Notes: a model not told the origin generated them from the sequence alone. 63,984 nucleotides of DNA from Thermoanaerobaculia bacterium (GCA_046756565.1 JBHHWO010000004.1:1-63984); one strand, 5' to 3'. Numbered from the stretch's first letter, positions 26,392 through 42,978 are shown. Numbers and translations: made by a program.

Positions 26392-29300
26392 CTACGCGGG
26401 CGCCGTCTCGCCCTCGGTAACAGGCGCCGTTTCGGAGGCCCGGCTTGCACGCTCCGAACCGGCCCAGACTCGCCGGAGCCACGCCGAGATGGCTTCCATC
26501 AGGACGGAGATAAACGGCAAGACCAGGAGGGTCAGGATGACCGAAGACATCAGGCCGCCCATGACCGTACGGGCCAGCGGGTAGTAAAAAAGCCCGCTGG
26601 TTGCCGGCCCGCGAATGGCGAGCGGCACCAGGCCGATGATGGTCGTAGCCGCGGTCATCAGAATCGGGCGCAGGCGCTCCTGGCCGGCGAGAACGATCGC
26701 CTCGTCGCGTGGCAGGCCCGTCTTTCGAAGCTGGTTGACGTGATCGAGCAGCACGATCCCGTTGTTGACGACGATGCCCATCAGGATCAGAACTCCGATC
26801 TGCCCCATCAGGTTGAAGCTGGTGCCGGTCGCTGCCAGCATCCAGGCGATGCCTGGCAGGGCGAACGGAATCGAGAACAGGATCGCGAACGGCTGGGCCA
26901 ACGACTCGAACAGCGACGCCATCACGAGATAGACCAGCGCCAGAGCCAGAAGGAAGTTCACGCCCATCTGGGCGTTCTGGTCCTGCTGCTCGACGATCCG
27001 GTCGTTCCAGCTCCAGGAGTAGCCGGGAGGCAGCTCGAAGGCGTCCATGAGACCGGCGATCTCGTCCTGGGTGTCCTTCCAGTTTTCGCCTTCGTAGGTG
27101 CCGCGGACAGAGACGCGGACCTTCCGGTTCTCGCGCTCGATCTGGCGCGCGCGCGGAACGATCTCGAAGGTGGCGACATCGGCCAGGGTGATCGCCGCGC
27201 CGTCCTGCCCACCGATCTGGAGGCGCTTGAGGTCGTCGAGGTTCTCGCGGTCCTCGAGCCGCAGCGCCAGCCAGGTGTCTACTTCGCGCTCGCCCGCGTT
27301 GAAGCGCGGCAGGCGCATGGCCCCGAGGGTGAACGAAAAGATGTCCGCCATGTCTTGGGCGTCGAGACCGTTTCTCGCCGCCTTCTCGCGGTCGATCTTG
27401 ACGCGGACTTCCTGTTGGGAATCGCGAAACGAAGTGCGAATGTCCTGAATGCCGTCGAGGGTCTCGATCCTGCGCAGGGCCTCGTTGGCATAACCCTGGA
27501 GAACCGAGCTGTCCTGGCCGAAGAACTTGACCGCAAAGAAGGTGCTCGAGCCGCCGGTATCGGCATCGTCGTCGAACATGAACTTGACGCCCGCGATCTC
27601 CGGCAGCCTTTCGCGAATCCGGCCCTGAAGCTCGCGCACCTCCTCGTCGGTCATGTTCTTGCGCGCCAGAACCATTGTGGTCTCGGCCCGGTTCTCCATG
27701 TAGAAGCTGTACAGCGATTTGATCTCGAACTCTTCCCGGTGCTCCCAGAGGAACGGTTCCAGCTCCCGAACCGTCTCACGAGCCTCCGACTTGTAGGTGT
27801 GGTCGGCAAACTCGTAGCGTAGGAAGATGCGCTCGTTGACGATGCCCGAGAAGATGGCGCCCTCGACCATGCCGGTCTGAAAGGGCACCATGCCGATGCC
27901 GAGAAACAGGAGCAGCACGCCAGCTGTCTTCCATCGATGGACCAGGGTCCAGCGCAGAACCCGGGCGTACTTTCCCTCGAGCCAGGAGACCGACTTGATC
28001 TCCTTTGCCTTCTTCCTGCCCAGGAAGTGCGCCGACATGAGCGGGATGAGAGTCAAGGAGGAGAAGAGCGAGCAAGCCAGCGCGATCGCGATCGCGATGC
28101 CGATCTCCTTGAGCCACGTGGTGAGTCCGGTCGCGGCCCCGATAATCAGTGGCAGGAATACGATCAACGTGGTCAGAGTCGAGGCCGAGACCGCGGTCGC
28201 GACCGCTCGCGCCCCGATCAGCGCCGACTTCTTGCGGTTCCTCTCGGTTCGATGCAGCCGGTCGATGGACTCGAGCACCACGACCGCGTTGTCGACCAGC
28301 ATACCCACCGCCAGCATCAAACCCATCATGGACAGCACGTTCAATGTCTTGCCCATGAAGTACATGATTCCGCAGGCAGCCAGGATCGAGAACGGAATCG
28401 ACAGCGACACGATCAAGGTCGAGTCGAATCGGCGCAAAAAGAAGTAGAGGCTGAGGATCGCCAGAACGGCCCCGATCAGGCCCGCGGTCATCAGGCCGGT
28501 GAGCCCACCCATGATCTCTTCGCCCTGATCGTCCCAGACGAACAGGTTGACGCCCTCGAGGAGTGGGTCGTTATTGATTTCGTTCCTGATCACCGCCATC
28601 ACGCTGCGCACCACGTCGACAGTGTTGGCCGTGGACTCCTTGAAGACCTCCAGACCGACGGCGAACTGCTGATCGAGGAAGCGGCCGTGAGGAATTGGCG
28701 GCTCCTCGTAGGTGATCTCGGCGATATCGCGAAGCCGCAGGCCGCGCTCGTCGATCACCATGTCACCGACCTCTTCCACGGACCGGAACTGACCCACCGA
28801 ACGGGCCGTGAGGCGCAAGCCGCCCTGATCGACCTGACCCAGGACCATATTCGTCGAGGAGCCCTGCAGCCGCTGGATGAGCGCACTGACGTCCACGTTG
28901 TGCTCGCGCAGGCGCGCCAGCACGAGATCGATCGAGATCTCACGCGGTCGGACGCCGTCCAGATCCACGCGCGCCACACCGGGCACCCGCCGGAGGCGGT
29001 TCAAGACGCGCGCTTCGATGAGATCGTACGATTCGGAGAGGTCGACACCTTTCGAAGACACCCGCGCCTGCACCACGGGCATGTCGTTGGTGTTGAAGGA
29101 GAAGATGACGATCTCGCCGATCGAGGTCGGCAGATCGGCCTTGATCTGATCCATCTTCTCGCTGACCTGCATGCGAACGATGTCGAGCTCCTTGCCCCAG
29201 TCAAATTCGAGGAAGAACGACGCCTGGTCGGCGTCCGCGCGTGAGTTGAGCGTTTTGACGCCCGGCATGGTCGCCAGGACCTCCTCCACCGGCTTCAGGA

Positions 29301-29487
29301 TCTCCTTCTCGATCTGCTGCGGATTGGCGTTCGGGTACGGAACCTGAACCATGATGAACGGGGCGTCGACCTCGGGCAGGTAGGCCAGCGGAAGCCGGGC
29401 GAGCGCAATGCCCCCTATGACCAGAATGCTGATCAGGATCATTGCGGTCGTGATCGGGCGGCTGACCGCCAGCTTGGAGAGGTTCAT
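26392..29487 (-). CDS. RND efflux permease (AcrB/MdtC-like), second permease of the operon
   Basis: 1031 aa. The N-terminus is LAVSRPITTAMILISILVIGGIALARLPLAYLPEVD. It has 12-TM RND architecture with two large periplasmic loops. It starts 3 nt after the stop of the upstream permease gene. Confidence 0.95.
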   Translation of the reverse strand: MNLSKLAVSRPITTAMILISILVIGGIALARLPLAYLPEVDAPFIMVQVPYPNANPQQIEKEILKPVEEVLATMPGVKTLNSRADADQASFFLEFDWGKELDIVRMQVSEKMDQIKADLPTSIGEIVIFSFNTNDMPVVQARVSSKGVDLSESYDLIEARVLNRLRRVPGVARVDLDGVRPREISIDLVLARLREHNVDVSALIQRLQGSSTNMVLGQVDQGGLRLTARSVGQFRSVEEVGDMVIDERGLRLRDIAEITYEEPPIPHGRFLDQQFAVGLEVFKESTANTVDVVRSVMAVIRNEINNDPLLEGVNLFVWDDQGEEIMGGLTGLMTAGLIGAVLAILSLYFFLRRFDSTLIVSLSIPFSILAACGIMYFMGKTLNVLSMMGLMLAVGMLVDNAVVVLESIDRLHRTERNRKKSALIGARAVATAVSASTLTTLIVFLPLIIGAATGLTTWLKEIGIAIAIALACSLFSSLTLIPLMSAHFLGRKKAKEIKSVSWLEGKYARVLRWTLVHRWKTAGVLLLFLGIGMVPFQTGMVEGAIFSGIVNERIFLRYEFADHTYKSEARETVRELEPFLWEHREEFEIKSLYSFYMENRAETTMVLARKNMTDEEVRELQGRIRERLPEIAGVKFMFDDDADTGGSSTFFAVKFFGQDSSVLQGYANEALRRIETLDGIQDIRTSFRDSQQEVRVKIDREKAARNGLDAQDMADIFSFTLGAMRLPRFNAGEREVDTWLALRLEDRENLDDLKRLQIGGQDGAAITLADVATFEIVPRARQIERENRKVRVSVRGTYEGENWKDTQDEIAGLMDAFELPPGYSWSWNDRIVEQQDQNAQMGVNFLLALALVYLVMASLFESLAQPFAILFSIPFALPGIAWMLAATGTSFNLMGQIGVLILMGIVVNNGIVLLDHVNQLRKTGLPRDEAIVLAGQERLRPILMTAATTIIGLVPLAIRGPATSGLFYYPLARTVMGGLMSSVILTLLVLPFISVLMEAISAWLRRVWAGSERASRASETAPVTEGETAPA

Positions 29488-29490
29488 CGG

Positions 29491-32400
29491 CTACCCCACT
29501 TCTCCGACGATCTCGCCGGCGAGTGATTCAGGCGTTTTCGTCGAGTCTGTCTCTGCCTCCGCAGCCGGCAGCTCGTCACGCCGGTCAACCAGGGAGTACA
29601 CCACCGGGATGACGATCAGGGTCAGCATCGTGCCCACCGCCAGGCCTCCGATCACCGTAATCGCCAGCGGCGCCCGAAGCTCCGCTCCCTCGCCCAGGCC
29701 GAGTGCCATTGGCAGCAGCCCGAAGATGGTGGTGGCCGAGGTCATCAGGATCGGTCGGAGTCGGTCGCTGCCGGCCGCAACCAGGGCATCGACCTTGCTC
29801 ATTCCGGTCCGGCGTCTCTGGTTGACGGCATCCACCAGCACGATTGCGTTGTTGACGACGATGCCGGCAAGCATGACCGCACCGATCATGGCGACGATGT
29901 TGATCGACCGACCGGTGATCGCCAGAGCCGCAATCACGCCGATGGCGCCGAGGGGCAGCGTGAAGATGATCACGAACGGATGCAGGAAGGACTCGAACTG
30001 TGACGCCATCACCAGATAGACCAGGAAGATCGCAAGCGCCATCGCCAGGACCAGGGAGCGCTGCGCGGAGGCGCGCTCTTCCTCCTGGCCGGAGAGCGCG
30101 GCAGTCACCCCGGCGGGCATGATCATGTCGCCGAGCTCCGCCCGCACGTCGGTCGCAACCGCAGCCATGTCCCGGCCGGCAATGTCGGCCGAGATCACGC
30201 CGGCGCGTTTCTGGCCGATCCGGCGGATCTCGCTCGGACCCTCGGTCAGATGCACGCTGGCTACGGACTTGAGATAGATTGGCACTCCTTCGCGCTGGCC
30301 GACGATGAAGTTGCTGACATCGTCGACCGAGGCCCGTCCCAGATCCACGGAGCGCACGACGATGTCGATCTCACGATCGCCCTCGGTGAATCGGGTCGCG
30401 ACCTCACCCTGGACCTTGTTGCGAATCGTGTCCGAGACGTCGCCCAGGTTGAGGCCGAGTCGAGCGAGCTGGTCGCGATCGAACTGGATCTGAAGCTCCG
30501 GGTTGCCGAGCTCGGCACTGGACTTCACATCCACGAGGCCCGGCACTCCGGCCATGCGAGCCCGGGCTTCTTCGGCGGTTCGGTGAAGGTCCATCAGCCC
30601 ATCGCTGTAGATCTCGACCTCGATCGGCGTCCGGAAGCTGAAGAACGTCGGGCGCTCGAACTTGGAGTTGGCGAGTCCGGACTGATCCAGGCGATCCCGA
30701 ACCCTTCGAATGACGGCGTGCTCCTCCTCGGGCGTGGTGCCGGGAGCCATCCGGATCTGGAGTCGAGCGGTGTTCTCGCCTTCGCTTCCAGTATTGGTGA
30801 GCGAGAGACCACGGCCACCGACGATTCCGGCGAAGGTCTTGACCGTCTCGTCGCCCTCCAGCACCGACTCGACGTCGGCCAGGAACCGATCGGTGGCCTC
30901 CAGCGGTGTACCTTCGGGTAGCACGACCGTGAAGCTGAACTCACCCTGCGAGAAGGTCGGGATGAGATCAAAACCCAGCTTCGGCACCATCCGGACCGCA
31001 GCGGCGAACGCCAGAAGCGCGATCGCGAGAACCAGCGGGCGGGCCCGAAGAGCGCCGCGGAGTACACGCGGATAGGCCGCAGAGACGATTCCCAAACCGG
31101 CGTCGAATGCCGCGGTGAGAGGCCGGCTGGCGATCGAAAGCACTCGGCCGAGCAGCCGCAACAGCCAGCGGATCGCGAACACGATCCAGGCCGGGCCGGT
31201 TACAAAGATCGAGCGCAGTCCGACGCGGGTGTAATGACGGGTACGGGCAAACCGACCCTCGGCGACGGCCGCGGCGGGAGGCGGCGCCTCGAGCGCTTTC
31301 TGCTTGCCGAGAATCGCCGCCAGCATCGGGATGAGCGTCAGCGCGACGGCGAGCGACGCGATCAAAGAGAACGATACGGTGAGCGCCATGTCGCGGAAGA
31401 GCTGTGCTGCGATGCCCTCGAGAAAGACGACCGGCAGAAACACGGCCACCGTGGTGAGAGTGGAAGCGGCGACCGCGGTCCCCACTTCGGACGCCCCGCC
31501 GCGGGCAGCCTCGTAAGCCGAAGCTCCCTGCTCGCGGCGCTTGAAGATCGCTTCCAGCACCACGATGGCGTTGTCGACGAGCATCCCGACTCCCAACGCC
31601 AGCCCGCCCAGGGACATGACGTTCAAGGTGGTACCGGTCCGGTACATGAGAAAGAAGGTCGCGACCACCGAGATCGGAATCGAGAGTCCGATGATCAAGG
31701 TGCTCCGGGGGTCCTTCAGAAAGAAGAGAAGCACCAGGATGGCGATGCCGCCGCCGACCAGAGCGTTCATCAGCACTTCGTCGATCGAGGCCTGAATGAA
31801 CTCGGACTGGTCGATCCCGGCGACGACCTCGATGCCCTCGGGCAGCTCGCCCTTGACGTTGTCGAGCCGGGTCAGAATCGAACGGGCGACCTGAACCGTA
31901 TTTGTGTCGCCCTCCTTGTACATCGCCAGCTCGACGGCCTCATCCCCACCGAAGCGAGTGATCACCTCGCGCTGTTTGTGCCCGCGCCGTACGGTTGCGA
32001 CATCAGAGACCTTGACGCTGCGGCCCTGGTGAGACATGACCACGGTGTCGCCGATGTCCCCGAGACCCTCGAACTCATTGTTCGCGCGCACCAGATACCG
32101 AGCTTCCTCCTCATAGAGGCTGCCACCGGCCTGGTTGACGTTCTCGCGCAGGAGAACCGAATTCACGTCCTGAATGCTCAAGCCCAGAAGCGCCAGTTTG
32201 CCCTCGTCGACCCGGACCTGAATCTCCTCTTCGAAGCCACCGTTGACCTTGATCGCCGCGACGCCCTCGGTCGACTCGAGATCCTTCTTGAGGACCTCCT
32301 CGGCCACGTAACGCAGCTGATAGAGGTCTCGGCCCCCGGTCACGTACAGACGTACGATCGGGTCGTTGGCCGGATCGAAGCGCAAGAGCACCGGCTTCGG

Positions 32401-32763
32401 GGCTTCTCTGGGCAGGCGAAGCAGATCCAGCTTCTGCCTCACGTCCAGCGCAGCGAAGTCCATGTTTCGGCCCCATTCGAACTCCAAGGTGACCTGCGAG
32501 AGGCCCGGCCGTGCGATCGACGTCAGGCGCTTCACACCCGCGACGATTCCCACCACCTCTTCGATCGGGCGCGAAACCAGCGCTTCGACCTCGGCCGGGG
32601 CCGCACCGGGCAGTCGCGTCTCGACCGTCAGGCTCGGATACGAGAGGTCGGGCAGGAGGTTGATCGACAGCCGTCCGAAGGCGACCATTCCGAAAAGCAT
32701 GAGCGCCACCGCCGCCATCGAGATGGTGACGCGGCGTCGAAGCGAGAACTCGACGAGCTTCAT
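29491..32763 (-). CDS. RND efflux permease (AcrB/MdtB-like), first permease of the operon
   Basis: 1090 aa. The N-terminus is FSLRRRVTISMAAVALMLFGMVAFGRLSINLLPDLSYP. Conserved TM4 region GLALGVGMLVDNAIVVLE. Confidence 0.95.
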   Translation of the reverse strand: MKLVEFSLRRRVTISMAAVALMLFGMVAFGRLSINLLPDLSYPSLTVETRLPGAAPAEVEALVSRPIEEVVGIVAGVKRLTSIARPGLSQVTLEFEWGRNMDFAALDVRQKLDLLRLPREAPKPVLLRFDPANDPIVRLYVTGGRDLYQLRYVAEEVLKKDLESTEGVAAIKVNGGFEEEIQVRVDEGKLALLGLSIQDVNSVLLRENVNQAGGSLYEEEARYLVRANNEFEGLGDIGDTVVMSHQGRSVKVSDVATVRRGHKQREVITRFGGDEAVELAMYKEGDTNTVQVARSILTRLDNVKGELPEGIEVVAGIDQSEFIQASIDEVLMNALVGGGIAILVLLFFLKDPRSTLIIGLSIPISVVATFFLMYRTGTTLNVMSLGGLALGVGMLVDNAIVVLEAIFKRREQGASAYEAARGGASEVGTAVAASTLTTVAVFLPVVFLEGIAAQLFRDMALTVSFSLIASLAVALTLIPMLAAILGKQKALEAPPPAAAVAEGRFARTRHYTRVGLRSIFVTGPAWIVFAIRWLLRLLGRVLSIASRPLTAAFDAGLGIVSAAYPRVLRGALRARPLVLAIALLAFAAAVRMVPKLGFDLIPTFSQGEFSFTVVLPEGTPLEATDRFLADVESVLEGDETVKTFAGIVGGRGLSLTNTGSEGENTARLQIRMAPGTTPEEEHAVIRRVRDRLDQSGLANSKFERPTFFSFRTPIEVEIYSDGLMDLHRTAEEARARMAGVPGLVDVKSSAELGNPELQIQFDRDQLARLGLNLGDVSDTIRNKVQGEVATRFTEGDREIDIVVRSVDLGRASVDDVSNFIVGQREGVPIYLKSVASVHLTEGPSEIRRIGQKRAGVISADIAGRDMAAVATDVRAELGDMIMPAGVTAALSGQEEERASAQRSLVLAMALAIFLVYLVMASQFESFLHPFVIIFTLPLGAIGVIAALAITGRSINIVAMIGAVMLAGIVVNNAIVLVDAVNQRRRTGMSKVDALVAAGSDRLRPILMTSATTIFGLLPMALGLGEGAELRAPLAITVIGGLAVGTMLTLIVIPVVYSLVDRRDELPAAEAETDSTKTPESLAGEIVGEVG

Positions 32764-32769
32764 GACCGG

Positions 32770-33987
32770 CTAGCTCGCTTCTCGGGCTTCGGCGATTTCG
32801 TCCGTGTCTTCTTCGTCGACACCCACCAGCTTGACGGCCGCGCCATTCTTTAGACCTCCCTGCCCTGCGACGATGACGTCGTCTCCGACTCCCAGCCCAC
32901 TCACAGCCTGCACCCAGAGCCCTTCCTCGAGTCCGAGCTCGACCTCGCGCTTCTCGGCCTTGCCCTCGTCGGTGAAAACGAAGACGTGCGCCGACTGGAG
33001 CTCACGAAGAACCGCCTCGCGCGGGACCAGCACCGCCGCTGTCCGGGTCTCGCGAACGATGTCGATCGTGACGAAGCTTCCCGAGCGTACGGTTTTCGGA
33101 GGCGCTACCGCTTCGATCGTCACCTTGATCGTCCCGGTCGCGGTGTCGACGACCGGGCTCACCTGCCGGACCAGGCCCTCGAACACGGTGTCGGGGCTGG
33201 CGTTCAAGGTAATCCGAACGTCACCGCCGCCCTGGAGTCCGATCACGTCGCGCTCGGGCAGAAAAATCCGGGCGACGAGCGGATCGACGTCGGTCAGCTG
33301 GAAGAGCTCATCGCCCATCCGCAGGTTCTGGCCGACCTGGATCATCCGTTCGCTGATCTGGCCCGAGAAGGGCGCCTTGATGGTCGTCTTCTGGAGTCGC
33401 CACGCCGCCTCGGCCTTCTCCTGCTGAGCGATCTCGAAGTCCATCTTGAACTTGTCGAACTCCTCGCGGCTGATCAGCTCCTTGGCGATCAGATCCTGGC
33501 CCCTTTCGAACGCCAGGCGAGCATTGGTCTCCTTGAGATCCGTCTTGCGGAGGTTGATCTCCTCGTCGTCGCGAACCAGGGTCGCCAGATGCTGTCCCTC
33601 ACGAACGAAAGCGCCCTCGTCCACGAGCAGGCGGGCCACGCGTCCCTCGACCTCGGCCAGAAGCCGGACTTCGTTCTCGGCGACCAGATTGGCGGTGGTG
33701 GTGATGTAAGCCGAAATCTGGCCCGCTTCGATCGCGGCGATCTCCACCGGAACCGGGGCTTTGCCTTCGTCTGCGCCTTCACCCTCGCCGTCGGAGCCTT
33801 CGGCGTTGTCCCCGCTGTCGCCCGAATCCGCCTGCTCCTCAGGCGCCGCGTCGGCGCCATTGGCCTCGCTCGCGCTCATGTTCATGAGCGCTGCCCCACC
33901 GACCACCAGCAGCGCGACCAGACCCGAGATCCAGAAGATGCGACTGCGCTTCTTTCGTTTCCGACCCGCGGACGTTTCCAGGCTCAT
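32770..33987 (-). CDS. RND periplasmic adaptor (membrane fusion protein, HlyD/AcrA family)
   Basis: It has an N-terminal anchor (IFWISGLVALLVVGGAALM), a lipoyl/hairpin pattern (G.V..L.VDEG..V..GQ.LA.L) and a beta-barrel segment (V.V...G.A..R.VELG). It is the first gene of the MFP-RND-RND operon. Confidence 0.9.
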   Translation of the reverse strand: MSLETSAGRKRKKRSRIFWISGLVALLVVGGAALMNMSASEANGADAAPEEQADSGDSGDNAEGSDGEGEGADEGKAPVPVEIAAIEAGQISAYITTTANLVAENEVRLLAEVEGRVARLLVDEGAFVREGQHLATLVRDDEEINLRKTDLKETNARLAFERGQDLIAKELISREEFDKFKMDFEIAQQEKAEAAWRLQKTTIKAPFSGQISERMIQVGQNLRMGDELFQLTDVDPLVARIFLPERDVIGLQGGGDVRITLNASPDTVFEGLVRQVSPVVDTATGTIKVTIEAVAPPKTVRSGSFVTIDIVRETRTAAVLVPREAVLRELQSAHVFVFTDEGKAEKREVELGLEEGLWVQAVSGLGVGDDVIVAGQGGLKNGAAVKLVGVDEEDTDEIAEAREAS

Positions 33988-34170
33988 TGGTTGTCTCCCT
34001 TGAGTCCACCTCGGGACAGCCGCGGTGGTGTACAGCTAGCAATACGCAAAGAAACGCAGGAGTGTTTCAGGGTTGGCGACAGCCCGAGGGGTCCAAAGCC
34101 GCGTGTTAAGATTGCCTGCAATCCGCACCGCGCCCATCGCTCGCGGAGGTCGTACCCGGGGGCGAAGCTC

Positions 34171-37149
34171 ATGATCGAAACCACCGAGCTCCTCCAGTCC
34201 TACGTCCACGGAATCCGCAGCCTGAGCGGCGCTCGCAGCGTCTCCCTCTACGTGCCGGCCTCTCTGAGCGGTCTGTCCCAGCCGTTTCTGATTCACGATG
34301 GCGAGGATTTGGCGGTGCCGGAGCTCGCCGACCTCGAAACCGCCGACGCCTTTGCGGCCGGGCGCACGGACGACGCGACCGGCGAGCCCGGCACCATGAT
34401 GCCGAGCGCTGATCCCCTCGCCAGCCTGCTGCCGCTGCCCGCCGTGGAGTCGTTCTGGTCAGGAGGCGTCTGGCCCGCCGATCGGGAACAGCATGAGCAC
34501 GCGACACCCAGTCGAAGGAGGTCCGACGCTGCGCCGCCCACCTCACCGCCCTCGGCCTGGCTGGGCTTCCGCTTCGCGGACCCGAGCGAGGCGCTCGGCG
34601 ATCGGCTCAAGGATCGGGACTTCCTGGAGAAGCTCGCGAAAGACGATCCGCTGCCGTGGTGGGAGTGGCTGTTCGCCCTCGGCGGAGCCCTGGCCAGCCA
34701 TGCGTCGCAGGTGGCCGCAATCCTCAAGGATCCGATCACCGGTTTCCCCGACCGCACCGGCTTTCAGGCGATCCTGACCGAGGAGCTCGAGAAGGCCCGT
34801 CGCACGGGACGACCGCTTTCGCTGCTCCTGATCAACCCGGACGAGTTCGCGACCATCAACGAGAGGTTCGGCAGAGAGGCCGGCGACTCGATCATCCACG
34901 ACGTCAGCCGGCGTTTGCGCTCCGCCCTTCGCAGCTCGGATCCCATAGCCCGCTACGGTGGCGTCATCTTCGCGGCGATTCTCTCCGAGACGAACCTGGC
35001 CACGGCCCGCGAAGTCGCGGGCAAGGTGCTCGAGAGCATCGCCGAGGAGTCGTTTCTGGACGGCGCGGTCCGGCTGGGATTCTCAATCGGCGTTGCGGTC
35101 CTCGACGGCGAGCAGGAAACCGGACTGTTGCCTCTCGAGCTGGTGCGTCGAGCGGATCAAGCCCTCAATGCCGCCAAGCGGCTGGGAGGTGGATGTCTCG
35201 TCGACTGGGAGGAGCGCTCGGGCCTGGAGGAGTCGGGAGCCTTCGACCGGCTGAGCGGCATTTTCACCGGCAACCTTTCCAAGGACTACCGCAACATGGT
35301 CCTGATCTGGGACACGATCGACGTGATCGCTCTCAATCAGGATTTCGACGGGCTTTGCGGCGAGGTGGCCGAAAGGCTCTACGGCGTTTTCAAGCCCAAT
35401 CGAATCGGCGTCTTCTCGAGCCAGGACGACGGCTCGATGCTGCTAACCCGCGGTTTCACGCGCCGCGCCGCCGGATCGCGTAATCAGCAGAGGGTCGAAA
35501 CCGTCGAGCTCTCGCACGAGGAGCGCAATCTCCTTCGGCTCGCTGTGGCTGCCGGTGAGCCCAGGGAAGGCGCGAACGATGTCCAGGACGGCGTCGAGGA
35601 AGTCAGCTATGCGGTGCCGCTGCGCACGAGCGGCGCCTCGCTCGGCGCCCTGTTTCTGGCCGGAGATCGCGATCTCCTGGTCCTGGAGTCTTCGGACCTG
35701 GGCTTCCTGAAGGCGCTCGCCGGGCAGCTGGCGGTGGCTCTCGATCGCGCCCGCCTCTCAGAGCTCGACCGGGCTCGCCAGGAGGGCGAGCGCCGGCAGC
35801 TCAAAGCCGAGCTCAAGGAGCTTCGCCAGGCCCTGCAACAGGCCAAGCTCGTCTATCGGTCGCCGGAGATGGAGGACGCCGTGGGCACCGCCCGCCGGGT
35901 CGCGCCCACAGACGCCACGGTGCTGATCACCGGTGAAAGCGGCACCGGCAAGGAGCTGCTCGCCCGCACCGTACACGAGCTTTCGAGCCGGCGAGATCGG
36001 CCGTTCGTCATCGTCGATTGTGGCTCGATCGCGACCACCTTGATCGAGAGCGAGCTGTTCGGTCACGAGAAGGGCGCCTACACCGGCGCCCAGGTGCGCC
36101 GTCGAGGGCAGCTGGCCGAGGCCGACACCGGAACTGTCTTTCTGGACGAAATCGCAGAGCTTCCGCTCGAGGTGCAGAGCAAGCTCTTGCGCTTCGTCCA
36201 GGAAAAGCAGTTCAGCCCGGTCGGCGGGAGCCGAGTTCGGAAGGTCGACGTCCGGATCGTCGCCGCCACGAACCGCGACCTCTCTCTCGAGGTTGCGGCC
36301 GGTCGGTTTCGCGAGGACCTCTACTATCGGCTCAATGTCGTTCGCATCGAAGTACCGCCGCTCAGGCAGCGCCCAGTTGACGTCCTCCACCTTGCCCGCC
36401 ACTTCCTCGACACGTTCACCGTCCAGTACCAGAAGAGCATCCGCCGGTTCACCCCAGCGGCCGAGGACGACCTCGTGCGCTACACATGGCCCGGCAACGT
36501 CAGGGAGCTACAGAACAGGATCATGCAGGCCGTAATTCTGTGCGACGGCGATGACCTCGACGCTTCGGATCTGGATCTGCCCACCGACGGCACCGTGGCT
36601 CCGATCGCGGAGGTGCCGACGCGAATTCTGGTCAGCCGCGCCGAGGCGGCCAGCCGGTCCACCGGACCCACCCTGGTCGGGGAGGACTGCTGGAGCCGGC
36701 TTCGCGAAGCCCTGGGACGGGAGGTCGACCTTGCACTCGGCGACGACGGCGACATGCTGTTCCCGCTCGGTACCTGGATTCGAGAAGATCTCATCCTCGC
36801 CGCCAACGACGCCGCGAGAGGCGTCGCGAGACGTGCGGCTTCTCTGCTCGGCATCCCGGAGACCACCTTCCGGCGGAGGTTGTCCAAGACCCAGCGGCAG
36901 CAGCGCTCCGGGCTCTCACCGAGGTCGGGGCGGTGGGTCGAGATCCGCTCGCTGCTCGCGGAGGTCGTGAGCTCGCCCACCGACGGGGAGGATCTGATCC
37001 GGAAGGCGCTCACGATTCTGCTCGAAGAGATCCTTCAACGCCTTCCCGACGACGTCTCGTCCGGCGCCCAGCTGCTTGGAGTCACGGCCCCGACCTTCCG
37101 GACGCGGACCGCCGAGCTGACCAAGCGGGCGAACTCTGCGGCCAAGTAG
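34171..37149 (+). CDS. Sigma-54-dependent transcriptional activator with N-terminal sensory region, degenerate GGDEF domain (intact I-site), GAF-like domain, AAA+ domain and two Fis-type HTH motifs
   Basis: ATG at 34171 (MIETTELL). The GGDEF fold is ITGFPDRTGF...LLLINPDEFATINERFG...RSSDPIARYGGVIFAAIL. The AAA+ domain has VLITGESGTGKELLA, ESELFGHEKGAYTGA (a GAFTGA variant), FLDEI and RIVAATNRDL. The C-terminal HTH-like motifs are AASLLGIPETTFRRRLSK and GAQLLGVTAPTFRTRTAELTK. Confidence 0.9.
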   Translation: MIETTELLQSYVHGIRSLSGARSVSLYVPASLSGLSQPFLIHDGEDLAVPELADLETADAFAAGRTDDATGEPGTMMPSADPLASLLPLPAVESFWSGGVWPADREQHEHATPSRRRSDAAPPTSPPSAWLGFRFADPSEALGDRLKDRDFLEKLAKDDPLPWWEWLFALGGALASHASQVAAILKDPITGFPDRTGFQAILTEELEKARRTGRPLSLLLINPDEFATINERFGREAGDSIIHDVSRRLRSALRSSDPIARYGGVIFAAILSETNLATAREVAGKVLESIAEESFLDGAVRLGFSIGVAVLDGEQETGLLPLELVRRADQALNAAKRLGGGCLVDWEERSGLEESGAFDRLSGIFTGNLSKDYRNMVLIWDTIDVIALNQDFDGLCGEVAERLYGVFKPNRIGVFSSQDDGSMLLTRGFTRRAAGSRNQQRVETVELSHEERNLLRLAVAAGEPREGANDVQDGVEEVSYAVPLRTSGASLGALFLAGDRDLLVLESSDLGFLKALAGQLAVALDRARLSELDRARQEGERRQLKAELKELRQALQQAKLVYRSPEMEDAVGTARRVAPTDATVLITGESGTGKELLARTVHELSSRRDRPFVIVDCGSIATTLIESELFGHEKGAYTGAQVRRRGQLAEADTGTVFLDEIAELPLEVQSKLLRFVQEKQFSPVGGSRVRKVDVRIVAATNRDLSLEVAAGRFREDLYYRLNVVRIEVPPLRQRPVDVLHLARHFLDTFTVQYQKSIRRFTPAAEDDLVRYTWPGNVRELQNRIMQAVILCDGDDLDASDLDLPTDGTVAPIAEVPTRILVSRAEAASRSTGPTLVGEDCWSRLREALGREVDLALGDDGDMLFPLGTWIREDLILAANDAARGVARRAASLLGIPETTFRRRLSKTQRQQRSGLSPRSGRWVEIRSLLAEVVSSPTDGEDLIRKALTILLEEILQRLPDDVSSGAQLLGVTAPTFRTRTAELTKRANSAAK

Positions 37150-37337
37150 GCGCCGATTTTTAGCCAGGATTCTCCGTTTTTTGGTGCTCTCATGAGCATT
37201 CCCGGCGAGTCTTGGACCGAATCGACGGACACAATACCGGGAGCGCACCAGCCTTTCCCCCGGGTATTATGCAGAAAACCATTTGCATATTTGAATTTAC
37301 GCCCGAGGGGTAGTGCGACAGTGGCATATTCCCTTGT

Positions 37338-37354
37338 CCGGTATGCCGTTTGCC
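37338..37354 (+). promoter_or_regulatory. Weak candidate sigma-54 -24/-12 element upstream of the REC-PAS-GGDEF-EAL gene
   Basis: ccGGtatgccgtTTGCc has exact GG-N10-GC spacing, but the -24 box is poor (CGGTAT versus TGGCAC). An overlapping gTGGCATattcccTTGT (37321..37337) has spacing one nt too long. It lies in an AT-richer 268-bp intergenic region. Confidence 0.2.
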
Positions 37355-37417: not shown

Positions 37418-39622
37418 GTGCTCAGCGACTTTCGAACGGCAAACAGGTCTCGTGACTCCCGGGCGCGGGAGACGCCCCGCGAGCGACGTCCGGCCCCCAC
37501 GCTCGCACGGACGATCCTCATCGTCGAAGACGATCTGGAGCTGACCCGGCTCGCGCGCCGCCATCTCGAAAGCCACGAGTTCCAGGTGTTCGTGGCTGGC
37601 GACGCCGCTTCGGCGATGGAGGCCTACATTACCGATCCTCCCGACCTGATTCTGCTCGACGTGGCGTTGCCGGATCGCTCCGGCTTCGATGTCTGCCGAA
37701 CTGTTCGGGAGCTCCCGGGCGGGCATTCTGTCCCGATCGTGATCATGACCGGGCTGGACGATCCGGACACCATCAAGCAGGCCTACACGAGTGGAGCCTC
37801 CGATTTCGCGGTCAAGCCCCTGAACTGGACGGTCCTGAGCAACCGGCTCTCCCTCCTGATCGAGGCCGACCGGGCTTGCCGGAAACTCGCAGCCAGCCAG
37901 ATCAAGCTCGAGAAGACCGAGCGCATCGCCCGCCTCGGCACCTGGGAGTACGACCTGGCGACCGAGCAGGTCTCGGCCTCGCGGGAGACTGCGAGAATCC
38001 TCGGAATACCAGAAACCGAGTGTTCGTCGCGAGACGCGCTGCTGAGCTCGATCCACCCTCTGGATCGGGACCGGGCGATCGAGTCGCTCCGGGAGATGGT
38101 CGACGATCTGGCCGAAGCCGAGCTCGAGCATCGCGTGCTGTGGAGCGATGGCAGCGTGCGCTCCGTCAAGCACCGCTCCCAGGTTCGGCGGGATTCGGCC
38201 GGCCACGCGGTGAGCGTTCACGGCGTGCTGCGGGATGTGACCGACATTCGCAGGGCCGAAGAGAAGATCCGGCACTTGGCCAACTACGACCGCCTGACCG
38301 GATTACCCAATCGCCACATGTTCCTCGAGCTCTTGCAGGGCACGATGGCTCGGTGTGAGCGCAGCGAAGCGATCGTCGCGATCGCCTACGTCGATCTCGA
38401 TCGATTCAAGAAGATAAACGACACGCTGGGGCCCGAGATCGGAGACGAATTGCTCACCGCGGTCGCCGATCGCCTCCGGATCTCATTGCGCAGAGGCGAC
38501 TATCTGGTTCGCGAACGAGGACCCCAGGTCGCCCGTTGGGGAGGAGACAAATTCCTCGTCCTGCTGAGCGACCTCGACGAAGTAGGCGGCGCAGCCAAGG
38601 CTGTTCGACGCCTCTTGCGTCAGCTCGAGATTCCCTTCGCGGTCGCCGATCGCGAATTCTTCCTGACCGCAAGCGCCGGTATCTCGGTATATCCCACGGA
38701 TGGCGCTACCGCATACGAACTCCTGCAGCACGCGGAGTCGGCGATGTACCACGCAAAAGACCTGGGGCGGAACCGCTTCCAGTTCTACAGCGAGTGGATG
38801 AACGCCGCGTCCGCGCGCGAGATGGACGTGGAGAACGAACTCCACAAGGCGATCGAGCAGAACGAGCTCTACCTGACCTACCAACCAGTCCTCGACAGCC
38901 ACTCCCAGAACGTGATCGGTGGCGAGGCTTTGGTCCGGTGGGTGCATCCCGAGCTGGGTACCGTCTCGCCCGACGAGTTCGTACCGATCGCCGAGGCCGC
39001 CGGGCTGATCGTACGCATCGGCGAATGGGTGCTGCGTACCGCGTGCCGGCAGTTCCAGATCTGGTTCGAGGCAGGGCTGCCCAGGATTCGCCTGGCGGTC
39101 AACCTCTCGAGCCTGCAGCTGCACGAGGAGGACTTCGTGGGCAGCGTGGCGCGTATCCTCGCCGAGACCGGCTTCGACCCGTCGCTTCTGGACGTCGAGC
39201 TGACCGAACGAGGCGTCGCCCTCGACGACCGGCGCGCCGTCCGGAGCCTCGAAGGCCTCAGAGAACTCGGAATCCGAATCGCAGTGGACGACTTCGGCAC
39301 CGGTAATTCGGCGCTCTCGTATCTCAAGATCTTCCCCCTCGACGTCCTCAAGATCGATCGGTCATTCGTTCAGGGAATCGAGCGGGAGTCGAGCGACTCG
39401 GCCATTATCTCGGCGGTAATCGCGATGGCGCACCGATTGGGCCTCGAGGTGGTTGCCGAGGGAGTCGAGACCGACTCGCAGCTCGAGTTCCTACGAGAGC
39501 AGGACTGCAATCGCGTACAGGGCTTCTTGTTCGCCAAACCGCTGCCGGCGGAGGACTTCAGGGAGGTATTCGATAAGATTGGGCCCGGCCTAGGCGGCCA
39601 GTCTCGACCGGAGCCGAGTTGA
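37418..39622 (+). CDS. Response-regulator receiver / PAS / degenerate GGDEF (GGDKF) / EAL protein, a likely c-di-GMP phosphodiesterase
   Basis: REC: ILIVEDD...[20 protein letters not shown]-like segment follows. GGDEF fold with [15 protein letters not shown] domain with [36 protein letters not shown] and EGVET..Q. Confidence 0.9.
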
Positions 39623-42600
39623 TGCGCCCTCATCCAGCCAGCGTTACCAAACACCGGCTGATGGCACTAAGCGGAGCGGGGCTCGGGCTGCTCTGCGCAA
39701 CGCTGCTGCTTGTCGGCGGAGCGAGCCCGGCCGCGGGCCAACAGCGCAAGATCCCCTTCGACCGGATCGGCGTCGAGGACGGGCTGCCCCATTCGGCGGT
39801 CAACGCCATAGTTCAGGACGACACCGGCTTCATCTGGTTCGGTACCCAGGACGGGCTCGCCAAGTACGACGGCAATCGCTTTCAAGTATTCCGCTCGAAC
39901 GAAGAAGACCCCGGATCGCTGTCGAACAATTGGGTGTGGTGCCTGCTCAAGGACTCCAGCGGTCGGCTCTGGATCGGAACCAACGAGGGCGGTCTCAACC
40001 TCTGGCAACCCGCCACGCGATCGTTCCGGCGTTACATCAACGCCGAGGTGAACCGTTCGTCGATCTCCAACAATCGAGTCCGGTCCTTGATGGAGGACCG
40101 CGACGGACGGATCTGGGTCGGCACCGAATCGGGTCTCAACGTTTTCGATCCCGTCTCCCAGACCTTCAAGCGCTATCTCCACGATCCCTCGAAACCCGAA
40201 AGTCTCGGGCATAACCAGGTACGGGCCATCTTCCAGGACAAAGACGGCTCGATCTGGGTCGGTACCAACGGCGGAGGTCTGGATCGGCTGAACCCGGCTA
40301 CGGGCACTTTCGCCCACCTCCGGCACGATCCGAACGACTCCTCCTCGCTCAGCCAGGATCGGGTCAGGACCATCTTCGAAGACCGCTCCGGTAACTTCTG
40401 GATCGGCACGTACGAAGGCGGACTCAACCGTCTCGACCGTTCGACGGGAGCTTTCGAGCGCTTTCAGCACAACCAGCTCGATCCCACCAGCCTGAGTGAC
40501 GACCGCGTTCGGGCGGTGTTCCAGGACGCCAGCGGCGTGCTCTGGGTGGGTACCGACGGGGGGCTCAACGAATGGCTCCCGGAGCGCGGCGAGTTCGTGA
40601 GTCACGAAAGAAACCTGGCTGATCCTGGCTCGCTCAGTGACAGCCAGGTGATGTCGATCTATCAGGATCGAGGCGGCGTGCTCTGGATCGGAACTCAAGG
40701 CGGCATCAACAAATGGAATGCCATCACCGGCTCGTTCTCGGGCTTTCGACAGGATCCGGACAAGCCCGAGACCAGCCTCGCCAGCAATACCGTGATCTCG
40801 TTCTCCGAAGACCCCTCGGGCCGGCTCTGGGTGGGCACCTACGAGGGGCTTGATCTTCTCGACCGGAAGACCGGCCGGGTGCGGCATTTCAGGAAGAACG
40901 ACCGCGACCCGAACAGCCTTCGCGACGACCGGGTGATGTCACTGTTCACCGACAGATCCGGCACGCTCTGGGCCGGAACCTACGAGGGCGGGTTGCATCG
41001 CTTCAATGCCGACGAAGGGGGGTTCAAGAACTTCCGCAACGATCCAGACGACCCGACCAGCCTCAGCCGCGACGCCGTCACCGCCATCTATGAGGACAGC
41101 CTGGGCGTGCTCTGGGTGGGAACCTTCGGCGGCGGGCTGAATCGCTTCAACCAGGACCGCACCTCCTTCATCCGCTACCTGCACGATCCCAATAACGCAG
41201 CCAGCCTGGGAGCCGATCAGGTGCTCTGTCTGTTGGAAGGCTCCGACGGAATCCTCTGGATCGGAACCGACAGCGGCGGTCTCAACGGGTTCGACCGCAG
41301 CACGGGGTCGTTTACCCGGTACCGAAACGATCCCTCGAACCCCGACAGTCTCAGCAACAATACGGTGTTCTCGCTCCGGGAGACCGAAGACGGAACCCTC
41401 TGGATCGGAACCCAGGGTGGCGGGCTGAACAAGTGGACCCAGGCCGACAGGGAGGCCAACCTGGCCCGGTTCGTCAACTACGATTCCCGTCATGGTCTGC
41501 CCAACGAGGTCATCTACGGGATCCTCGACGACGAGGACGGCAACCTGTGGATGAGCACGAACGAAGGCCTGGTCGGCTTCGACCCGAACACCGAAGGTGT
41601 CCGGACCTACGACACGACCCACGGCCTTCTCTCCAAAGATTTCAACTTCGGCTCTTACCGGAAGCTGTCGACCGGAGAGATGCTATTCGGAGGTAACGAG
41701 GGTTTCAACATCTTCCATCCCTCCTCGATCCAAGCGAATGCCCACATCCCCGAGGTCGTGATGACTTCCTTCCGCAAGTTCAACCGGGAGGTCGAAACCG
41801 ACACACCCCTGACCGACCTCGAAGAGATCGAGCTCTCGCACAAGGACTACGTCGTCTCGTTCGAGTTTTCCGCTCTCGACTACTCGGCCCCTCAGAAGAA
41901 CCGGTACTCCTATCGGCTGGACGGCTTCGAGACCAACTGGAACGAAGTCGGCAACCGGAATCGAGCGACCTACACCAACCTCGATCCGGGCACGTACACG
42001 CTGCGTGTCAAGGCGGCCAACAACGACGGCCTTTGGAACGAGGCCGGACTGACGATACCGATTCGGGTGATTCCACCTCCCTGGAAGACCTGGTGGGCCT
42101 ACCTTTCGTATGCCGCCGCTGTCGTGTTCGGCGTGATGGCGATCCTCGGAAACCTGTCCGCAAAACGGCGTCGCGAGACCGAGCAGCGGCGCTATCTCGA
42201 GCGTCAGGTCGCGGAGCGTACCCGCGAGCTGGCCCTCAGAAACCGTGACCTTCAGGAGGCCATCGACAAGGTCGAGCTTGCCAGCGTCACGGACACCTTG
42301 ACCGGTCTGCGCAACCGTCGCTTCCTGGTCAACAATATCGATTCCGATCTAGCGCTGGTCGACCGCTACTACGAAGACCTCAAGCGCCGCCCGGAGGCCG
42401 TCGACGCCGACCAGGAGCCCGACACCCTGTTCTTGATCTTCGATCTAGACGGCTTCAAGGAGATCAATGACACCTATGGCCACGCCGCCGGCGATCGGGT
42501 GCTGCTCCAGGTCACCGACCTGCTCGAAGCCACGTGCCGGGAATCCGACACCATTATCCGATGGGGCGGAGACGAGTTTCTGATCATCGCTCGGCGTACG

Positions 42601-42978
42601 CGGCGGCAGTCGGCGGAAGATCTCGCGGAGAGGCTCAGGGCCAGTGTCGCTGCTCACGAGTTCGAGCTCGGACTCGGCAAGAGCGCCAACCTGTCCTGCT
42701 CCATCGGATTTGCCTTCTACCCGTTCTTACGCAAGTTCCCGAGAGCGCTCTCGTGGGAGCAGGTCAACGCCATCGCGGACCGCGCGCTCTACATCGCCAA
42801 GAAGAGTAATCGCAACGCCTGGGTGGGTATCTTCGAGGATGACAAGGCCAGCGACGTTCACCCGTCGGCGTTGGTCCAGAAAATCAACCACGAGCTCGAC
42901 GAGCTGGTCGAGCAGGGCGTGGTCAGCTTGAGTACCTCGATCACCAGCGAGGAGCAGCTGGTGTGGGCCTGGGCCTGA
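39622..42978 (+). CDS. Periplasmic two-component-regulator-propeller + Y_Y_Y sensor diguanylate cyclase
   Basis: Signal/TM at the N-terminus. More than 12 repeats of the W(I/V)GT..GGLN.(F/W) propeller motif. Y_Y_Y domain (YSYRLDGFETNWNEVG...YTNLDPGTYTLRVKAANNDG). Then a TM helix, a coiled coil and a GGDEF domain with the I-site (RESDTIIRWGGDEFLII). The ATG at 39622 overlaps the upstream TGA (TGATG). Confidence 0.9.
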   Translation: MRPHPASVTKHRLMALSGAGLGLLCATLLLVGGASPAAGQQRKIPFDRIGVEDGLPHSAVNAIVQDDTGFIWFGTQDGLAKYDGNRFQVFRSNEEDPGSLSNNWVWCLLKDSSGRLWIGTNEGGLNLWQPATRSFRRYINAEVNRSSISNNRVRSLMEDRDGRIWVGTESGLNVFDPVSQTFKRYLHDPSKPESLGHNQVRAIFQDKDGSIWVGTNGGGLDRLNPATGTFAHLRHDPNDSSSLSQDRVRTIFEDRSGNFWIGTYEGGLNRLDRSTGAFERFQHNQLDPTSLSDDRVRAVFQDASGVLWVGTDGGLNEWLPERGEFVSHERNLADPGSLSDSQVMSIYQDRGGVLWIGTQGGINKWNAITGSFSGFRQDPDKPETSLASNTVISFSEDPSGRLWVGTYEGLDLLDRKTGRVRHFRKNDRDPNSLRDDRVMSLFTDRSGTLWAGTYEGGLHRFNADEGGFKNFRNDPDDPTSLSRDAVTAIYEDSLGVLWVGTFGGGLNRFNQDRTSFIRYLHDPNNAASLGADQVLCLLEGSDGILWIGTDSGGLNGFDRSTGSFTRYRNDPSNPDSLSNNTVFSLRETEDGTLWIGTQGGGLNKWTQADREANLARFVNYDSRHGLPNEVIYGILDDEDGNLWMSTNEGLVGFDPNTEGVRTYDTTHGLLSKDFNFGSYRKLSTGEMLFGGNEGFNIFHPSSIQANAHIPEVVMTSFRKFNREVETDTPLTDLEEIELSHKDYVVSFEFSALDYSAPQKNRYSYRLDGFETNWNEVGNRNRATYTNLDPGTYTLRVKAANNDGLWNEAGLTIPIRVIPPPWKTWWAYLSYAAAVVFGVMAILGNLSAKRRRETEQRRYLERQVAERTRELALRNRDLQEAIDKVELASVTDTLTGLRNRRFLVNNIDSDLALVDRYYEDLKRRPEAVDADQEPDTLFLIFDLDGFKEINDTYGHAAGDRVLLQVTDLLEATCRESDTIIRWGGDEFLIIARRTRRQSAEDLAERLRASVAAHEFELGLGKSANLSCSIGFAFYPFLRKFPRALSWEQVNAIADRALYIAKKSNRNAWVGIFEDDKASDVHPSALVQKINHELDELVEQGVVSLSTSITSEEQLVWAWA

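Follow-up and report, generated by a model that had tools for sequence, protein, structure and literature searches.

What does a domain folded like a diguanylate cyclase, and stripped of the residues of catalysis, do inside a transcriptional activator? The question is raised by one gene (positions 34171-37149, plus strand) in a stretch of 63,984 nucleotides (nt) from a Thermoanaerobaculia bacterium (GCA_046756565.1, JBHHWO010000004.1:1-63984), which was analysed at its full length and is called the window here. A preliminary description of this DNA had recognised a sigma-54-dependent enhancer-binding protein whose sensory part holds a dead GGDEF domain with an intact inhibitory site (I-site), the place where such domains bind c-di-GMP (cyclic dimeric guanosine monophosphate). 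The reading that we favour, with a probability of roughly one in two, is that the protein would be a c-di-GMP-responsive sigma-54 activator that feeds back on the enzymes of c-di-GMP metabolism. The analysis shows the feature to be real, conserved and uncharacterised, and its new part is the circuit of activator, sigma-54 promoter and c-di-GMP enzymes.

The open reading frame translates into 992 residues and a stop codon, and its initial methionine (M1) is common to at least 90% of the orthologues. The parts of the protein run in the order GAF-like N terminus, stalk helix, degenerate GGDEF domain (GGDEF*), GAF domain, long helix, sigma-54 AAA+ domain, HTH_8 motif and an extra C-terminal helical module. 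A domain check with hidden Markov models returned the Pfam domains GGDEF, GAF, Sigma54_activat, AAA_lid_14 and HTH_8, in keeping with the five-part anatomy of the preliminary description, and the strength of these matches together with conservation in more than 100 orthologues argues that the domain features are not due to chance. Counts at single positions refer throughout to the columns of an alignment of 106 orthologues that are 45-80% identical to the window protein; an AlphaFold2 model of the whole protein, built on 106 orthologues, has a mean predicted local distance difference test (pLDDT) of 86.8. The parts lie as follows.

34171-37149, plus strand: coding sequence of the enhancer-binding protein (GAF-like, GGDEF*, GAF, AAA+, HTH_8 and C-terminal helical module)
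34171-34650, plus strand: N-terminal alpha/beta domain, residues 1-160, probably GAF-like (AlphaFold2, Foldseek)
34657-34719, plus strand: stalk helix, residues 163-183, leading to the GGDEF domain as in sensor-GGDEF cyclases (DSSP on AlphaFold2 models)
34726-35187, plus strand: degenerate GGDEF domain, residues 186-339 (Pfam PF00990, E 5.9e-30, 104.6 bits)
34930-34941, plus strand: I-site RSSD, residues 254-257, aligned with the RxxD of DosC and PleD
34951-34971, plus strand: degenerate signature RYGGVIF, residues 261-267, in place of RYGG(D/E)EF
35257-35298, plus strand: junction motif GIFTGNxxKDYRNM, residues 363-376, between GGDEF and GAF
35341-35748, plus strand: GAF domain, residues 391-526 (Pfam GAF)
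35851-36576, plus strand: sigma-54 AAA+ core and lid, residues 561-802 (PF00158, PF25601)
36073-36090, plus strand: sigma-54 contact loop GAYTGA, residues 635-640
36790-36888, plus strand: Fis-type HTH_8 DNA-binding motif, residues 874-906
36934-37143, plus strand: extra C-terminal helical module, residues 922-991, possibly a second helix-turn-helix (HTH)

Can the GGDEF* domain still make c-di-GMP? The fold is that of a diguanylate cyclase: the domain matches cyclases in the PDB with E-values down to 3.6e-20 (phmmer), and its pLDDT in the AlphaFold2 model is mostly above 85 over residues 190-340. The catalytic acids and the DxD magnesium ligand, however, are missing. The signature RYGGVIF aligns column for column with the RYGGEEF and RYGGDEF of solved cyclases, reads GG[VA][IV]F across the orthologues, and holds an acidic residue at either catalytic position in none of the 106. 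Position 222, where cyclases carry a magnesium-binding aspartate, is asparagine in 105 of 106, and the magnesium site reads NPD rather than DxD. The earlier claim of a catalytically dead domain is therefore strengthened by a third loss, and with all three acidic magnesium and catalytic residues replaced the domain, to judge from the alignment, cannot synthesise c-di-GMP. The positions that matter compare with PleD as follows, the PleD residue being given first.

D327, magnesium ligand: N222 (34834-34836, plus strand)
N335, guanine contact: N230, kept in 106 of 106
D344, guanine contact: D239, kept in 105 of 106
R359 and D362, RxxD of the I-site: R254 and D257
E370 and E371, catalytic acids: V265 and I266
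R390, third residue of the primary I-site: K285 (35023-35025, plus strand)
K442, phosphate contact: K336, kept in 102 of 106
R446, phosphate contact: G340, glycine in 104 of 106

The I-site has fared quite differently from the catalytic centre. Five residues separate D257 from G263 of the signature, and phmmer places RSSD squarely on the RxxD of E. coli DosC, which is likewise RSSD. A local alignment with a GGDEF sequence of PleD agrees on the placement of both signature and I-site, so that the canonical position claimed for RSSD is upheld and no misalignment was seen. R254 is kept in 103 of the 106 orthologues and D257 in 102, while position 285 is basic in 96 (lysine in 69, arginine in 27). 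Across 85 genome and metagenome loci the RxxD is present in 83, its middle pair taking at least 12 combinations (SS, ST, AT, MT, GT, SE, QS, RS, HS and others), and it is found in 81 of 90 aligned cluster representatives, an alignment restricted to members of at least 850 residues. The persistence of RxxD while its two middle residues vary freely argues for selection on R254 and D257 specifically. As far as the alignments can tell, then, selection acts on the arginine, the aspartate and the third basic residue of the I-site, although the catalytic acids are always missing from the domain. The position of R313, which belongs to the secondary site of PleD, is basic in 66 of 106. Within the protein only the AAA+ domain is better conserved than GGDEF*, whose RxxD five residues before the signature, with an extra basic residue, is the pattern of degenerate-GGDEF I-site receptors. 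From these likenesses we infer that c-di-GMP would bind at R254, D257 and K285.

The preliminary description had gone further and called the domain an I-site-only input. The dead domain and the intact I-site stand, but the word "only" is too strong, because the active-site (A-site) contacts N230, D239 and K336 are conserved as well. Altogether GGDEF* has lost three acidic catalytic or magnesium-binding residues and one phosphate-binding arginine, and has retained the I-site triad and two guanine-contacting residues. An A-site asparagine and aspartate are also what marks the GGDEF domains that sense guanosine triphosphate (GTP), of the PdeA (CC3396) type, and both are retained here, though the magnesium and phosphate ligands are lost. 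These conserved guanine contacts might let the activator compare GTP with c-di-GMP.

Is the remainder of the protein a genuine sigma-54 activator? Sigma54_activat (PF00158) covers residues 561-727 with an E-value of 4.4e-69, and AAA_lid_14 (PF25601) residues 732-802. In phmmer the AAA+ domain matches ZraR (E 5.4e-80) and NtrC1 (E 1.5e-72), and Foldseek finds 52% identity to ZraR and template-modelling (TM) scores of at least 0.9 to several activator cores. The Walker A (GESGTGKE) and Walker B (FLDE) columns are invariant in all 106 orthologues. These motifs and matches bear out the complete sigma-54 module reported earlier. One worry attached to it was that the GAYTGA contact loop, a conservative variant of GAFTGA, might cost the protein its sigma-54 dependence. 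Tyrosine is the family majority in this loop (85 of 106, with phenylalanine in 19), and HrpS, a working activator, natively always carries GAYTGA (PMC3105312); the variant is thus no argument against dependence on sigma-54.

Behind the AAA+ module the model shows a disordered linker (residues 808-836) and two helical modules, the first of which is the HTH_8 motif; its score, 21.2 bits when all 992 residues are scanned, rises to 23.6 bits for the isolated fragment (cut-off 22), and it supplies the DNA-binding C terminus that had been predicted. The second module (residues 922-991) is modelled as helices with a pLDDT above 90 and has a conserved LLGVTxPTF. A Pfam scan of these residues in the window protein gave no match, while the relative P0256 matches HTH_23, HTH_28 and HTH_29 models at the same position, and the module is possibly a second DNA-binding HTH. 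With an AAA+ core, a sigma-54 contact loop, a C-terminal HTH and a nearby -24/-12 promoter (a property of the family, the window's copy being weak), the protein is, by its domains and motifs, a bona fide activator module of the sigma-54 AAA+ and HTH kind.

What would such an activator switch on? The candidates lie directly behind its gene.

37149-37187, plus strand: two GC inverted repeats centred on T-tracts, at 37149-37165 and, weaker, at 37171-37187, 22 nt apart
37270-37287, no strand assigned: palindrome TGCA-N10-TGCA, a second candidate binding site, with its centre some 87 nt upstream of the predicted start site
37339-37354, plus strand: candidate sigma-54 promoter CGGTATGCCGTTTGCC, with GG at 37340-37341 and GC at 37352-37353
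37418-39622, plus strand: gene for a REC-PAS-GGDEF(GGDKF)-EAL protein, first gene of the putative target operon
39619-42978, plus strand: gene for a Reg_prop beta-propeller/Y_Y_Y-GGDEF diguanylate cyclase, the conserved partner gene of the family

The downstream promoter was sought over 450 nt beyond the stop codon in 54 loci, some of them near-duplicates, with the consensus TGGCAC-N5-TTGCW (GG-N10-GC), scored out of 11. Near-consensus sites (at least 10 of 11) occur on the forward strand in 22 of the 54 loci and on the reverse strand in none, and all of them lie 154-270 nt after the activator stop; as background, about 200 kb read on both strands, made up of the loci of eight relatives and 22 kb of the window, had only 4 sites scoring at least 10. 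The window's own site, CGGTATGCCGTTTGCC, follows the stop at 189 nt and precedes the phosphodiesterase gene's GTG by 64 nt. In the relatives' loci L003 and L004 the sequence aligned with it is CGGTAC-N5-TTGCC, with a variable spacer, and the same CGGTAC-N5-TTGCC is found at the matching offset after the stop in L009 and L012. By this alignment the window's copy is degenerate but positionally homologous to the sites of its relatives. An alternative promoter, TGGCATATTCCCTTGT at 37322, was rejected: its spacing is off by one and its -12 element reads GT, whereas 37339-37354 has the correct GG-N10-GC and is conserved.

The genes behind this promoter give the locus its interest. The phosphodiesterase and cyclase pair placed directly after the activator gene by the preliminary description is there in the Pfam annotation. 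The first product reads GGDKF in its GGDEF domain and has intact EALVR and DDFGTG motifs, and it is probably a c-di-GMP phosphodiesterase with a regulatory GGDEF domain. The second has an N-terminal hydrophobic segment, 12 propeller repeats, an intact RWGGDEF and an I-site of its own (RESD-x5-GGDEF). A propeller cyclase of this Reg_prop/Y_Y_Y-GGDEF type, a REC-PAS-GGDEF-EAL protein, or both, lie behind the promoter in 26 of 47 informative loci; the cyclase gene adjoins the activator in most informative loci, and in L002 and L071 it abuts the activator gene directly, in operon. Linkage of promoter and cyclase persists down to about 38% identity. In about 15 loci S8 subtilases come first behind the promoter, and the cyclase follows in at least six of these, sometimes with the phosphodiesterase before it; eight subtilase-first loci run into the end of their contig before a gene for cyclase or phosphodiesterase could show. 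The succession of subtilases and propeller-GGDEF cyclase behind one promoter would mean that the regulon links secreted proteases with c-di-GMP synthesis. Taken together, promoter and gene order make the downstream operon the likely target of the activator.

The composition of this neighbourhood varies from clade to clade. The window and L003 have the phosphodiesterase gene, L001, L002 and L004 lack it between activator and cyclase, and in L009 and L012, too, the activator is directly followed by the gene for the cyclase. Subtilase-first arrangements include L026 (8785-12447), L032 (8563-11511), L036 (4424-7552), L037 (8672-10453) and L085 (8576-10429), among others. In L005, L006, L017, L020, L022 and L024, at about 53% identity, a cluster of genes for an extracytoplasmic function (ECF) sigma factor, an anti-sigma-like protein and a PDZ protein begins 23-53 nt past the activator gene. 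Elsewhere in the window, the best match to the family's position weight matrix (PWM) is an exact sigma-54 consensus, TGGCACGGAGGTTGC, at 13644-13658 (minus strand, 12.3 bits), between a TatD-type gene (13692-14459) and a small open reading frame followed by a gene for a monofunctional transglycosylase (12549-13328); it suggests that sigma-54 is used elsewhere in the organism.

How might the activator find this promoter? A de novo motif search returned the element GCCGCCG-TTTTT(T)-CGGC, whose density is 5.7 per kb over the 215 nt that precede the promoters and 0.13 per kb elsewhere in the same loci. In several loci it is tandem, with copies 21-22 nt apart at -130 to -210. A protein-binding site is favoured by the two-turn spacing and by hairpins that carry the T-run in their loop. 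The element is also almost always on the plus strand, and in some loci a perfect stem is followed by the T-run, so that part of the signal may be the terminator of the activator gene; a terminator scan at the window's repeats found none. The T-tract repeats are thus candidates for activator binding sites or for a terminator-like element. The palindrome TGCA-N10-TGCA is exact in the window, L004, L009, L012 and L026, has one mismatch in L003 and is spaced by N9 in L028; as a universal binding site it was rejected, being confined to two clades, that of the window and one other.

A Pfam scan of the N-terminal region gave no match at E<=1. Modelled alone, residues 1-160 reach a pLDDT of 79 and a predicted TM score of 0.75, and their top Foldseek matches in the PDB are nearly all GAF domains (DosT, DosS, PDE5, phytochromes), the matches being weak (E about 1e-2, TM 0.4-0.5). 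We tentatively take these 160 residues, on the strength of the model, to be a further GAF-like sensor; the N-terminal region of about 190 residues noted before is present and now divides into this domain and the stalk helix. The central GAF domain is matched by Pfam at residues 393-524 (26.2 bits, cut-off 22.4), and from it a single helix of 50 residues (507-557, DSSP on the AlphaFold2 model) leads to the AAA+ domain. The first third of the protein thus looks like a sensor-stalk-GGDEF cyclase and the remainder like a GAF activator of the NifA/NorR type. A Foldseek search with the full model was dominated by matches of the AAA+ domain and returned nothing on the multi-domain arrangement. Outside the AAA+ domain, conservation peaks in the junction motif GIFTGNxxKDYRNM, with D372, Y373, R374, N375 and M376 each present in 106 of 106; the DRLSGIFTGN that precedes these residues resembles the DxLTGLxNR that begins a GGDEF domain.

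How widespread is the arrangement? Full-length relatives numbering more than 100, 45-80% identical, came out of a database search, each with the same Pfam set and an automatic name only; those that bear organism names are metagenome-assembled genomes of Acidobacteriota/Thermoanaerobaculia, and the two closest genomes are one assembly labelled Thermoanaerobaculia and one labelled "Acidobacteria bacterium". With residues 1-560 as the query, 209 clusters (50% identity) match at E<=1e-30, most of them 940-1080 residues long and aligned end to end. As these searches and alignments indicate, this is a large uncharacterised family of Acidobacteriota, and a dead GGDEF domain with an I-site is its family state. 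NCBIfam returned only sub-threshold matches (NifA, NtrC and similar models), so that the protein is not the equivalog of any named activator.

We propose that these parts would work together as follows. Through its HTH, and with the conserved repeats upstream of the promoter as its presumed sites, the activator would bind DNA downstream of its own gene. From there, as the adjacency implies, it would drive the sigma-54 promoter at 37339-37354; the linkage between promoter and gene is itself seen in the comparison of loci. The output would be the phosphodiesterase and the periplasmic-propeller cyclase in the window, and subtilases and cyclase in other clades. On the sensory side, c-di-GMP intercalated at the I-site would cross-link or re-orient the GGDEF* domains, and the geometry of the GGDEF* pair, passed on through the GAF domain and the helix at 507-557, would shift the register of the helix and with it the step of the AAA+ domain from dimer to hexamer. 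In this way c-di-GMP would act back directly on the transcription of its own enzymes.

Which sign would the feedback have? The balance tips slightly towards c-di-GMP locking the off state rather than the on state, by analogy with product inhibition in PleD and WspR, with FleQ, and with negative control by long linker helices. In PleD and WspR the GGDEF domains are immobilised when the I-site is occupied, and in NtrC1 and DctD a long linker helix ahead of the AAA+ domain goes with negative control. An off state of this kind, if true, would impose negative feedback on cyclase expression and act as a homeostat, while the opposite sign would give a positive-feedback switch.

Several observations weigh against this proposal. 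The argument for the I-site is one of homology and conservation, and the A-site residues N230, D239 and K336 are as conserved as those of the I-site, so that GTP or a different guanine nucleotide could be the ligand, alone or as one of two. With C for T at -26 and TTGCC at -12, the promoter in the window is a weak match, at 7.0 bits ranking 18 among about 128,000 positions. Given its strand bias, the T-tract repeat could be terminator-like, and the TGCA palindrome is limited to certain clades. Both the promoter and an adjoining cyclase are missing from about six loci, those of the clade with the ECF sigma genes, and from a few more, yet these keep the RxxD. Finally, a search for the RpoN box in the window and the relatives' loci DNA examined found no rpoN gene.

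The DNA upstream of the gene bears on an altogether different target, a divergent efflux operon.

26392-33987, minus strand: gene for a membrane fusion protein (MFP) and two genes for resistance-nodulation-division (RND) pumps, context (Pfam)

The MFP/RND operon starts 183 nt upstream of the activator, and the divergent order holds only in the clade at about 50% identity or more, where it is seen for the window, L001-L006 and many metagenome loci. Upstream regions of 73 loci were scanned with a simple consensus and with a PWM trained on the family promoters, and the PWM reached at least 8 bits, on either strand, in only 2 of the 73 intergenic regions. Between 33988 and 34170 of the window no -24/-12 element points toward the RND genes, the best match on that strand scoring 2.4 bits. 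The preliminary description was right about the divergent arrangement; as a sigma-54 target the RND operon was rejected, the window and its relatives having no such element toward the pump genes, and with sites in 2 of 73 loci only, sigma-54 autoregulation of the activator was rejected too. One sigma-54-like match of 9.9 bits, TGGTGTACAGCTAGCA at 34026-34041 (plus strand), 130 nt upstream of the activator ATG, is probably a chance occurrence, because in L003, an 81% identical relative, the GC is changed to GG and the score falls to 2.5 bits. The sequence TGTTTCA/TGAAACA recurs in the intergenic region (window about 34062-34068, L002, L003, L011, L014, L050, L076, L078) and may be a promoter or operator element of the RND operon or the activator gene.

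Could the activator nevertheless serve other ends than a response to c-di-GMP? Control of the RND operon, with the downstream c-di-GMP genes regulated independently, would account for the divergent order conserved at about 50% identity and above, and it is very improbable: besides the want of a -24/-12 element just described, RND linkage is gone below that identity while promoter and cyclase stay linked to about 38%, and the flanking order (E1 dehydrogenase, RND, activator, and an ECF sigma gene further on) suggests general colinearity. A rival that deserves more attention concerns the ligand. GGDEF* would sense GTP or another guanine nucleotide (guanosine diphosphate, pGpG, ppGpp) at its remnant active site, the RxxD being structural or secondary, and would report guanine-nucleotide status, as the GEDEF domain of Caulobacter PdeA (CC3396) does. 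The near-invariance of N230, D239 and K336 speaks for it, and a degenerate GGDEF domain that senses GTP is an established precedent (PMC7288161). Loss of the magnesium and phosphate ligands (PleD D327 to N, E370 to V/A, E371 to I/V, R446 to G), however, makes tight binding of GTP-Mg doubtful, and N230 and D239 may be kept for reasons of fold. It is also difficult to see, if GTP were the ligand, why the arginine, the aspartate and the third basic residue of the I-site were retained, or why the family is wired to c-di-GMP enzymes. We regard GTP sensing as unlikely.

The same low standing belongs to the idea that GGDEF* binds no nucleotide at all. It could be a dimerisation and transmission relay from the GAF-like or the central GAF domain to the AAA+ domain, or it could dock on the GGDEF domain of the neighbouring cyclase in the manner of RpfR and BerB. 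A mechanical relay is indeed suggested by the way sensor, stalk helix, GGDEF, GAF and long helix follow one another, the junction KDYRNM is invariant, the cyclase is a conserved neighbour, and a GGDEF-EAL protein is known to regulate an activator by direct contact (PMC9684580). A scaffold, however, has no need of conserved R254, D257 and K/R285 around free middle residues, and docking on a neighbour is at odds with the persistence of the RxxD in clades without a neighbouring cyclase.

A broader claim has somewhat less than an even chance: that the family is a hitherto unrecognised class among c-di-GMP effectors, in which a GGDEF receptor domain dedicated to the task and I-site-only would gate a sigma-54 AAA+ motor, hard-wired through a promoter just 3' of its gene to a periplasmic-sensor cyclase, with or without phosphodiesterase, and to secreted subtilases, in a self-contained feedback module widespread in Acidobacteriota. 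Should c-di-GMP bind the I-site and gate the AAA+ motor, this would be a fourth route from c-di-GMP to an activator, beside the AAA+ site of the FleQ/FlrA type, the mode of VpsR and partners acting in trans, and the first case found in which the GGDEF I-site receptor and the transcription factor are one protein. It would give a handle on c-di-GMP signalling in Acidobacteriota, which are abundant in the environment and genetically hard, with regulator, promoter and operon all predicted from sequence. It would also offer a portable part for engineering, a c-di-GMP-responsive sigma-54 switch made of one protein and about 220 bp of DNA.

How does the protein compare with systems already known? FleQ, FlrA, FlrC and VpsR bind c-di-GMP on the AAA+ domain (PMC10333796, PMC7288161, PMC12564702), and FleQ does so through the motifs LFRS, RN and ExxxR (PMC10333796). 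With FleQ, FlrA and VpsR the window protein shares the AAA+ core (to that of FleQ the Foldseek TM is about 0.92, at 48% identity), the Fis-type HTH and a sigma-54-type activator output, which in those proteins is c-di-GMP-dependent and directed at surface and biofilm genes; here the dependence on c-di-GMP is proposed. They differ in having REC-like N termini and a site on the AAA+ domain, whereas in the window protein a separate GGDEF I-site domain is the candidate site. The RN that follows Walker A in FleQ is R599-T600 here, with threonine in 101 of 106, and the alignments of FleQ to the window's AAA+ domain start after the LFRS region.

The sensory domain, in turn, resembles PopA, PelD and SgmT, each of which has a catalytically dead GGDEF domain that retains RxxD five residues before the signature and serves as a c-di-GMP receptor; for the window protein binding is predicted. 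PelD combines a GAF with a GGDEF domain. The outputs of these proteins are unlike that proposed here: localisation and proteolysis for PopA, polysaccharide synthesis for PelD, localisation of a histidine kinase for SgmT (through a separate regulator, DigR), and there is no transcription factor or AAA+ ATPase among the three. A receptor with a dead GGDEF domain and RxxD is described for PopA in PMC12564702 and for SgmT in PMC3509222.

In its C-terminal two thirds the protein is built like NifA, NorR and FhlA, with GAF domain, linker helix, AAA+ and HTH_8, and control of the AAA+ domain by the N-terminal sensor would be expected as in those activators. It adds to them the GAF-like domain, the GGDEF* module and a second C-terminal helical module, and its predicted targets are c-di-GMP enzymes and subtilases as against nif, nor and hyc. 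The best NCBIfam match is the NifA model (TIGR01817; 334.9 bits over residues 468-814), and since the score falls far below the equivalog cut-off of 528.85, the protein is not NifA. In RpfR and BerB of Burkholderia cenocepacia (PMC9684580), a GGDEF-EAL protein is likewise coupled to a c-di-GMP-linked enhancer-binding protein; there two proteins act in trans, whereas the window protein has its GGDEF domain within the same chain, in cis and catalytically dead. The preliminary description knew of no characterised enhancer-binding protein with such an input, and a search of the full-text literature likewise turned up no description of one that contains a GGDEF domain.

A further comparison comes from a very small and uncharacterised metagenomic group, P0251, P0272 and P0273. 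These proteins have the same order of GGDEF, GAF and AAA+ domains (HTH_8 was confirmed for P0251) and, unlike the window protein, an intact RYGGDEF together with RxxD; two of the three also have the DxD magnesium site, and the sensor module of P0251 is about 29% identical to that of the window. They may be real cyclase-activator hybrids, going by these motifs, and their intact signature hints that the family descends from a catalytically competent fusion of cyclase and activator. The window protein thus combines two known kinds of regulator and is not categorically new, since the principle of the I-site receptor and the existence of c-di-GMP-controlled activators are both established.

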